NCBI GenBank assembly: GCA_039933105.1
Contig: JBDTOT010000018.1
Coordinates: forward strand, 26,083 to 90,082
Origin: Gammaproteobacteria bacterium
Lineage (GTDB): Bacteria > Pseudomonadota > Gammaproteobacteria > Steroidobacterales > Rariloculaceae
DNA: 64,000 bases
Direction: 5' to 3'
Position numbers and translations under genes: made by a program. This document shows positions 24,499-24,706 of the stretch, piece after piece (position 1 is the stretch's first letter; each line of letters starts with the position of its first letter). The notes below the pieces were generated by a model. It was not told the origin of the DNA. It saw only the letters and a program-made list of their open reading frames with translations, and did not search any database.

Positions 24499-24534
24499 AA
24501 CGCTACCTCGGAGCTCGCCCCGCCCTGAAATCGC
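24499..24534. promoter_or_regulatory. Bipartite element AACGCTAC-N18-CTGAAATCGC (copy 1)
   Basis: Lies in the 296-nt region between B2 (minus) and the 2Fe-2S gene (plus). The same two boxes recur with an N17 spacer at 42509-42543. Confidence 0.3.
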
Positions 24535-24706
24535 TTCTCCTAATACTTGGAATCGCGCTTGCCTATGACGTCAACGGCCGTTGGAGCCGCTGGACTCCTG
24601 TCCGGGTCGCGACTCTCCCGCCGTACCTCGGTCAGCCGACCGGCGGTACACTCGGCGGTGTTTGCGTCACCATGTCGGGAGGGGCGGATATGACGAGGAC
24701 GATCGA

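Follow-up and report, generated by a model that had tools for sequence, protein, structure and literature searches.

In a 64,000-nt stretch of the genome of an uncultured soil gammaproteobacterium (the window; G+C content, 65%; all coordinates are window positions), we analyzed the 10-mer CTGAAATCGC, which occurs upstream of two minus-strand gene sets, one beginning with the gene DUF6152 (site 1, 24525) and the other with the gene D1 (site 2, 42534). At these two sites the bipartite element that the 10-mer forms with a second box is probably, with a likelihood that we put at roughly 70%, the core of a promoter on the minus strand that depends on a transcriptional regulator of the LysR type (LTTR), resembles a nod box and was duplicated when an operon was split. 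The sequence architecture of the element, its conservation and synteny, its duplication and its linkage to a LysR gene were observed and are described below.

A recount bore out the sequence statements of the initial annotation, which had reported the 10-mer three times, on the plus strand only and always between genes. CTGAAATCGC was found exactly three times in the window, at 24525, 42534 and 56190, all on the plus strand and all (3/3) intergenic, whereas shuffling gave an expectation of 0.19 and none of 100 shuffles reached three copies. The second box that had been placed 18 and 17 nt upstream at the first two sites was also found, as AACGCTAC at 24499 and 42509; of its four matches in the window, these two belong to the module described here and the remaining two are at chance level. 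The shared downstream bases were likewise confirmed, since the degenerate 21-mer CCTGAAATCGCWTCTCYYAAT matched sites 1 and 2 with 0 mismatches (0.00 expected), the gap before GGRATCG being 4 nt at both. The likeness ran further than had been seen (...GGRATCG-N7-CTATR), and the two sites formed one continuous block of ~80 nt (24496-24578 and 42506-42587) with unrelated flanks on both sides. Alignment of the two blocks gave z = 12.5, and 0 of 2000 shuffles were as good. These sequence comparisons indicate that sites 1 and 2 are two copies of one module and not independent matches. If the pair is treated as a single event, finding the exact 10-mer once more in 64 kb is no surprise (expected ~0.19, P ~0.17). 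Thus, the count behind the reported rarity of the triple 10-mer stood, but its significance did not.

The distinct copies of the module were aligned on the minus strand, reading towards D1 or DUF6152, and gave [ATmG-N7-CGAT]yCC-N4-[ATy-N3-AGAT-N2-GAT]TTCA-N19/20-TAGCGT-N24..36-start codon. The order of its parts is [ATmG-N7-CGAT]-N7-[ATy-N9-GAT]TTCAG-N19/20-TAGCGT, and they are located in the window as follows.

24500..24505, minus strand: site 1 TAGCGT, a -10-like hexamer; core of the AACGCTAC box (24499-24506), invariant in nine sequences.
24530..24544, minus strand: site 1 candidate activation-site dyad ATT-N9-GAT (T-N11-A); proximal arm GATTTCAG at 24525-32, centre at about -44 to the inferred start.
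24552..24566, minus strand: site 1 candidate regulatory-site dyad ATAG-N7-CGAT; centre at about -66, 22 bp from the activation-site dyad.
42510..42515, minus strand: site 2 TAGCGT, a -10-like hexamer, 34 nt upstream of the D1 start codon (42473).
42539..42553, minus strand: site 2 candidate activation-site dyad ATT-N9-GAT; GATTTCAG at 42534-42541.
42561..42575, minus strand: site 2 candidate regulatory-site dyad ATAG-N7-CGAT of the D1-facing module, located by the alignment and the module profile.

The invariant core of AACGCTAC is ACGCTA, which on the minus strand reads TAGCGT, a TAnnnT hexamer that retains the T, the A (position 2) and the last T (position 6) of a -10 hexamer. TAGCGT was unchanged in 9/9 distinct module sequences and lay 24-36 nt before the minus-strand start codon in eight of the nine, the exception being window site 1 (89 nt); the A and C flanking the core vary (CACGCTA in loci L012 and L062). 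It lies 19-20 nt downstream of ATTTCA, and the spacer between GATTTCA and TAGCGT is G+C-rich and constant in length at 19-20 nt, its sequence not being conserved. CTGAAATC corresponds to minus-strand GATTTCAG, the promoter-proximal arm of the ATy-N9-GAT dyad, which occupies the -35 position and was found in all module copies facing D1 or DUF6152. The ATmG-N7-CGAT (T-N11-A) dyad was present in every module exactly 22 bp upstream of the activation-site dyad, and was perfect (ATCG-N7-CGAT) in L011, in L012 and in the two further kinds of module described below (MBL-side and family-2). If TAGCGT is taken as -12 to -7, the two dyads are centred at about -66 and -44. The dyad consensus ATC-N9-GAT / T-N11-A fits that of LTTRs. 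Perfect ATCG-N7-CGAT dyads numbered eight in the window against 3.0 expected, three of them within the intergenic regions of site 2 and of the family-2 module. The promoter-like spacing and the operator in a divergent intergenic region that had been proposed in the initial annotation were retained, but on the other strand and with other roles for the boxes.

Across the copies, the invariant boxes AT.G, CGAT, AT, AGAT, GATTTCA and TAGCGT are parted by spacers of variable sequence and fixed length, a pattern that looks like a protein-binding footprint. A conserved intergenic block of ~80 nt might also encode a structured cis-regulatory RNA or a small RNA, an explanation that we consider hardly tenable: no Rfam family reached the gathering threshold anywhere in the window, and RNAalifold on eight distinct sequences predicted 0 pairs on the plus strand, a trivial hairpin of -2 kcal/mol on the minus strand and no meaningful covariation, the conserved columns being short boxes and not paired arms. 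Two other candidates were rejected. OmpR/PhoB-type direct repeats (GAAATC...GGAATC, 22-bp spacing) were dismissed because orthologues show the units to be arms of ATC-N9-GAT dyads; sigma-54 and Bacteroidetes-type promoters were checked by eye, and GG-N10-GC and TAnnTTTG do not fit.

Conservation at orthologous loci, a check raised in the initial annotation, was found. The block was present in the intergenic region between D1 and a divergent metallo-beta-lactamase (MBL)-fold gene in four metagenome-assembled genomes (MAGs) of Gammaproteobacteria, two ENA contigs, three metagenome contigs and one more distant lineage. A scan with the exact pattern, covering one genome per species in 185,579 species, gave five matches, of which four were in Gammaproteobacteria MAGs, always in the MBL/D1 intergenic region and once per genome; the fifth (L006, Xanthobacteraceae) lies inside coding sequence and was set aside as chance. 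This result also bears on the possibility that the block is a dispersed repeat (REP- or MITE-like, i.e. a repetitive extragenic palindrome or miniature transposable element, or a mobile-element remnant) without a regulatory role, as two copies 18 kb apart in one genome might suggest. Such a repeat is very improbable, given a single copy per genome in four genomes at an always orthologous site, no terminal repeats, no target duplications and a fixed position relative to start codons. Nor does the block behave like a repeat family of the REP type, since there was one strict match per genome in the four MAGs. A metagenome scan with an alignment of D1 gave 80 loci, and the block was found only in the three closest (L011, L012 and L062). 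The module was not found at the distant D1 homologues (44-53% identity; L013-L090) or at the distant DUF6152 loci (L094 and L095), and is thus restricted to the clade that keeps the LysR-containing cluster.

To place the two copies, the genes of the cluster in the window are listed here.

21384..24410, minus strand: operon downstream of site 1; DUF6152 (23985-24410), A2 (23144 to ~23974), A3 (22293-23147) and a PfkB kinase gene (21384-22268).
39697..42473, minus strand: operon downstream of site 2; D1 (41550-42473, 307 aa) and C2 (39697-41538, MBL-like C-terminal domain).
42670..43632, plus strand: subclass-B3-like MBL-fold gene, divergent from D1; below the NCBIfam cut-off.
43662..45063, minus strand: DUF6152 paralogue (44626-45063) and p343 (from 43662), downstream of the family-2 module.
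45171..46073, minus strand: LysR-type regulator gene, the proposed cognate regulator; 300 aa, Pfam HTH_1 and LysR_substrate.

The contigs L001 and L002, which were reached via homologues of the site-1 DUF6152, have the gene order LysR > DUF6152 > p343 < MBL / D1 > C2 > DUF6152 > A2 > A3. Because D1-C2-DUF6152-A2-A3 is contiguous there, the two "paralogous operons" of the window are halves of one operon. In the L001/L002 operon, the distal genes are orthologous to those at site 1, with identities of 82-84% for DUF6152, 85-89% for A2 and 79-81% for A3. At site 1, only the D1-side module is duplicated (ATAG dyad through TAGCGTT), and the MBL side is not represented. DUF6152-A2-A3, the distal half, has PfkB behind it in the window and is 18 kb away from the D1 side. 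In the closest relative, L007, MBL / D1-C2 is followed by a convergent esterase gene and then by PfkB. In the window, about 15.5 kb (22269-37774; compared with 3463-5461 of L007) separate the GDSL/BD-FAE esterase gene (37775-39655) from PfkB (21384-22268), and this segment holds A3-A2-DUF6152, site 1, the oxidoreductase genes next to it and several minus-strand genes. It represents either an insertion in the window or a deletion in L007. The distance from the module to the DUF6152 start codon at site 1 is 88 nt, which is the length of the C2/DUF6152 spacer in L002, and homology between the site-1 leader and that spacer is clear only near the ribosome-binding site. From these comparisons we infer that the operon was split and that a copy of the promoter, gained by the distal half, preserved its regulation; exactly where the junction lies is uncertain.

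The regulator gene at 45171-46073 encodes a protein whose nearest solved structures are DntR (1uth/2uyf, E 3e-40, full length) and PcpR. Automatic JGI annotation gives the name "nod-box dependent transcriptional activator" to several close homologues of the protein; in NCBIfam, it gave only sub-threshold matches (BsrA and LeuO) and none to NodD. Orthologues with 78-80% identity are syntenic in five loci (L001, L002 and L008-L010), and the gene is also syntenic in L096/L097 and L098; every one of these loci carries the module. As a check of prediction, contigs with LysR orthologues of 66% and 71% identity were examined, and these carried the module after the gene. L096/L097 have kept the whole cluster, with a module both after LysR (E 2e-4) and in the MBL/D1 intergenic region (E 4e-8), the latter containing GATTTCA-N20-TAGCGT in L096. 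L098 has another downstream gene order, yet the module is present after its LysR gene. The module thus co-occurs with the LysR orthologue across 66-100% identity, and no other regulator was found to be conserved in the cluster when L001/L002 and related loci were compared.

The same minus-strand promoter could have dyads that are operators of a non-LysR regulator, such as a TetR-, GntR- or IclR-type dimer encoded elsewhere, in which case the LysR gene nearby would have no part in it. The dyads are defined by their short arms (ATCG/CGAT) only, the LysR gene is divergent from none of the targets, and the genome search covered 64 kb. On the other hand, two dyads spaced by a constant 22 bp, the proximal of which covers the -35, are what characterizes an LTTR tetramer or nod box, and the module tracks the LysR orthologue even in L098, with its different downstream gene order. 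We regard another helix-turn-helix regulator that reads the dyads as unlikely, and as the remaining serious rival to the LysR protein.

Searches with the module profile revealed two further modules in the window.

42582..42642, plus strand: mirrored module facing MBL; profile E 3e-8, both dyads perfect.
45094..45159, minus strand: family-2 module, a co-linear variant, directly after the LysR stop codon and before DUF6152-p343.

The MBL-side module comprises dyad B (42582-96) and dyad C (42604-18), both ATCG-N7-CGAT and 22 bp apart, and GATTTTC (42616-22), which is followed after 14 nt by TGTGGT (42637-42), ending 27 nt before the MBL ATG at 42670. GATTkyC-N14-TrTGGT is conserved on this side in eight lineages. 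A "terminator-like" scanner call at 42596-42616 is dyad C with its T-run, and both terminator-like calls of the scans were explained in this way. Within a module the distance from dyad to dyad is always 22 bp, whereas the D1-side and MBL-side modules are 21, 31 or 37 bp apart, so that they represent two separate units. L011, L012, L062 and L096 have only two dyads, which are used for both directions.

The family-2 module has the general form GGTATCG-N7-CGATACC-N4-ATT-N9-CAT-TTCC-N19/20-AACGAT, with a start codon 26-31 nt later. In the window it consists of GGTATCG-N7-CGATACC (45145-59), ATT-N9-CAT (45123-37), ATTTCC and, after 19 nt, AACGAT (45094-99), which ends 30 nt before the GTG at 45063. 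It is a weaker match to the profile of the block, and was also found after the LysR orthologues in L001, L002, L008-L010, L096/L097 and L098. A profile of all modules, run over the window, identified exactly four (site 1, both halves of site 2 and family 2), the next match having an E-value of 0.04. All four are in promoter positions of one gene cluster family.

These data bear on the proposal of the initial annotation that the boxes form an alternative-sigma promoter for the plus-strand genes, in the form of an extracytoplasmic function (ECF)-type promoter with AACGCTAC as -35 and CTGAAATCGC as -10, serving the oxidoreductase genes at site 1 and MBL at site 2. The spacing of 17/18 nt and a GAAC-like motif in most copies would agree with it. 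However, AAC is not conserved, reading CAC in L012 and L062, and it is ACGCTA that forms the invariant core; GAAC and CTGA are 22-23 nt apart, beyond the typical ECF spacer of 16-17 nt; the plus-strand genes at the two sites are unrelated; and the leader would be variable, at 85-180 nt. MBL moreover has its own mirrored module, with the conserved TrTGGT 27 nt before the ATG, and the copy at site 1 comprises just the half facing the minus-strand operon. A plus-strand promoter of this type is therefore highly unlikely, and the proposal was not supported.

LysR-type regulators bind as tetramers to a regulatory site (T-N11-A, centred near -65) and an activation site near -35 (PMC5603801). The nod-box consensus ATCCA-N7-GATG-N6-ATCCAAACAATCGATTTTACCAATC can be written as [ATC-N9-GAT]-N7-[ATC-N9-GAT]-TTT, of ~47 bp (PMC2575884), and this motif of two ATC-N9-GAT units lies just upstream of the -10 (PMC5596368). 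The module is co-linear with the rhizobial nod box, to which the LysR-type regulator NodD binds, having two dyads of the ATC-N9-GAT type 7 bp apart and then a T-run, and its dyad arms match in register at 10-12 of 12 positions. In contrast, the non-arm positions match at 6-9 of 22, which is about chance, the host is not a rhizobium, and no nod genes were found in the window or at the related loci. The promoters of the NahR/DntR/PcpR type are comparable in that the best solved relatives of the regulator are DntR and PcpR, and, if TAGCGT is the -10 of the module, in their T-N11-A regulatory site near -65, activation site over the -35 and weak -35 (PMC5603801). They serve catabolism of aromatic compounds, and hydrolase genes neighbour the modules here. 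They differ in that the half-site GTATCG/CGATAC is specific to this clade, the regulator gene here is co-directional with its target and not divergent, and the DUF6152, D1, C2 and A families are proteins without assigned function. By analogy, the element may work like a nod box or a NahR-type promoter, yet it is not a nod box. A sigma-70 promoter shares with it two conserved boxes with a spacer of constant length, the downstream one being TAnnnT at 24-36 nt before the start codon; it differs in that each hexamer of the module has 3/6 matches and the "-35" is half of a regulator dyad.

We propose that a tetramer of the DntR/NodD-like LysR protein (45171-46073) would sit on both dyads, whose centres are 22 bp apart, and would, with an inducer, recruit RNA polymerase to a promoter with an intrinsically poor -35. 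The same protein would also serve the family-2 module and the mirrored MBL-facing module, and the copy at site 1 would hold the distal half (DUF6152-A2-A3) under the same control as the D1 operon. In this scheme, what is inferred is where transcription starts, which protein binds and whether it activates or represses. Several points weigh against it. The LysR gene points the same way as its nearest target, whereas the classic arrangement is divergent, and it is separated from site 2 by 2.6 kb and from site 1 by 20 kb. The dyad positions of -66 and -44 depend on the assignment of TAGCGT as the -10, and both hexamers are weak relative to sigma-70 (TAGCGT, 3/6; TTCAGG, 3/6). A consensus sigma-70 promoter, with at least 4/6 matches per hexamer and a 16-18-nt spacer, was not called by the scanner at sites 1 and 2 on either strand. 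A 15-bp dyad with 4-bp arms is readable by other helix-turn-helix dimers, and the -10-like hexamer of family 2, AACGAT, is without the first T. Support for the idea that site 1 was joined precisely at the C2/DUF6152 spacer is weak (43% identity across the distal 65 nt, p ~0.035).

A broader and more tentative reading, which we consider possible but doubtful, is that the two-dyad module of ~45 bp would be a portable regulatory cassette, repeatedly copied in this lineage, that kept a fissioned operon in one LysR regulon. The compact ancestral form would be two shared dyads that serve both directions, as in L011, L012, L062 and L096. In the clade of the window this would have become two back-to-back modules, and a further copy would have been placed before DUF6152-A2-A3 at the operon split.

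The third copy of the 10-mer, at 56190, had been counted in the initial annotation among the copies, but it has no match to the module profile and is not conserved. Unlike sites 1 and 2, it falls within a tandem duplication of 97 nt; on one side is the first gene of an eight-gene paralogous operon, and on the other a divergent regulator gene with Trans_reg_C and PD40 domains. The three orthologous intergenic regions read GGCTTCGG, AGATTCCG and TTTTTCGG instead of the 10-mer. The reading of site 3 as a diverged copy of the module was rejected, as no dyad is in register there either. From the sequence of the region, the exact match at 56190 appears to be coincidental, and a different regulatory element appears to be present. 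The three orthologous regions conserve minus-strand TTCGGCGTTTTTCCGG-N2-TTTTC, of which a second copy lies in the window at 60576-60599.

Several observations on this other element were made in addition. TTCGGYGTTTTTCSG-N4-TTTTC (minus strand) has two matches in the window versus 0.01 expected and is conserved in L091-L093; the matches lie upstream of the eight-gene operon (56202-56225) and upstream of a gene for 452 aa (59114-60472). The TTCGGYGTTTTTCSG element adjoins the divergent gene for the Trans_reg_C and PD40 beta-propeller regulator (56322-58571), and on the plus strand it consists of GAAAA-type direct repeats ~11 bp apart, which would suit a winged-helix regulator. The segment 56183-56325 is tandemly duplicated with a period of 97 nt in both the window and L091, and its second copy overlaps the start codon of the regulator gene.

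The plus-strand neighbours of site 1 encode 2Fe-2S and molybdopterin subunits of an oxidoreductase. On their side, the site-1 module is adjoined by the perfect palindromes GACGTC (24567-72) and AACGGCCGTT (24573-82), which are absent at site 2 and could be an operator for the oxidoreductase genes. Neighbouring genes are hydrolases (MBL, GDSL/feruloyl-esterase-like and amidohydrolase), and several paralogous sets of the families described here occur within the window. Exact look-ups of proteins from the window gave no match; one protein with 100% identity is on record from an NCBI MAG.

In both DUF6152 proteins (23985-24410 and 44626-45063), a signal peptide precedes a His-His-Ser motif at the predicted N-terminus of the mature protein, and H23 and H24 were invariant in 50 homologues. 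This N-terminal His pair suggests metal binding. The AlphaFold model (pLDDT 73) is a small beta-barrel, which Foldseek matched weakly to OB folds (LysRS anticodon domain, SSB and PriB). DUF6152 was mentioned in none of the literature searched. The more distant DUF6152 genes at L094 and L095 have as neighbours genes for tannase, esterase/PETase-like proteins, amidohydrolase_2, cupin and sulfatase, which hints that the family accompanies the breakdown of aromatic esters or polyphenols.

A2 and A3 are unnamed exported proteins. An open reading frame of 772 aa (39697-42015) over C2 is over-extended, overlapping D1 by ~460 nt; when read from the in-frame ATG at 41538, which lies 12 nt past the D1 stop codon, C2 has 613 aa, in line with its orthologues of 609-626 aa. 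The C-terminal third of C2 is MBL-like, with weak SoxH-related matches. The reading frame of D1 is frameshifted in the MAG contigs L001, L007 and L009 and intact in close relatives; these frameshifts are probably indels of long-read assembly rather than signs of pseudogenes. For soil metagenomes, the counts were 7806 scored homologues of DUF6152 and at least 585 stretches encoding D1.

Mechanistically, nothing here departs from textbook LTTR or nod-box promoters. The result is a concrete promoter model, in which a candidate regulator is named and the coordinates of the dyads and the -10 are given. The genes under its proposed control are DUF6152 and three families of unnamed exported proteins, which are very common in soil metagenomes and without assigned function. 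Such systems are usually entered by way of a LysR regulator and its promoter, with which a reporter is built, inducers are screened and the substrate is then identified. The locus also shows an operon split in clean form, the distal half of which would have kept its regulation through a copy of the original promoter. If the module is indeed a portable cassette, the abundant secreted proteins of soil bacteria in the DUF6152, D1, C2 and A families would have a dedicated inducer-responsive regulon, and the regulator-promoter pair could act as a biosensor for their substrate.

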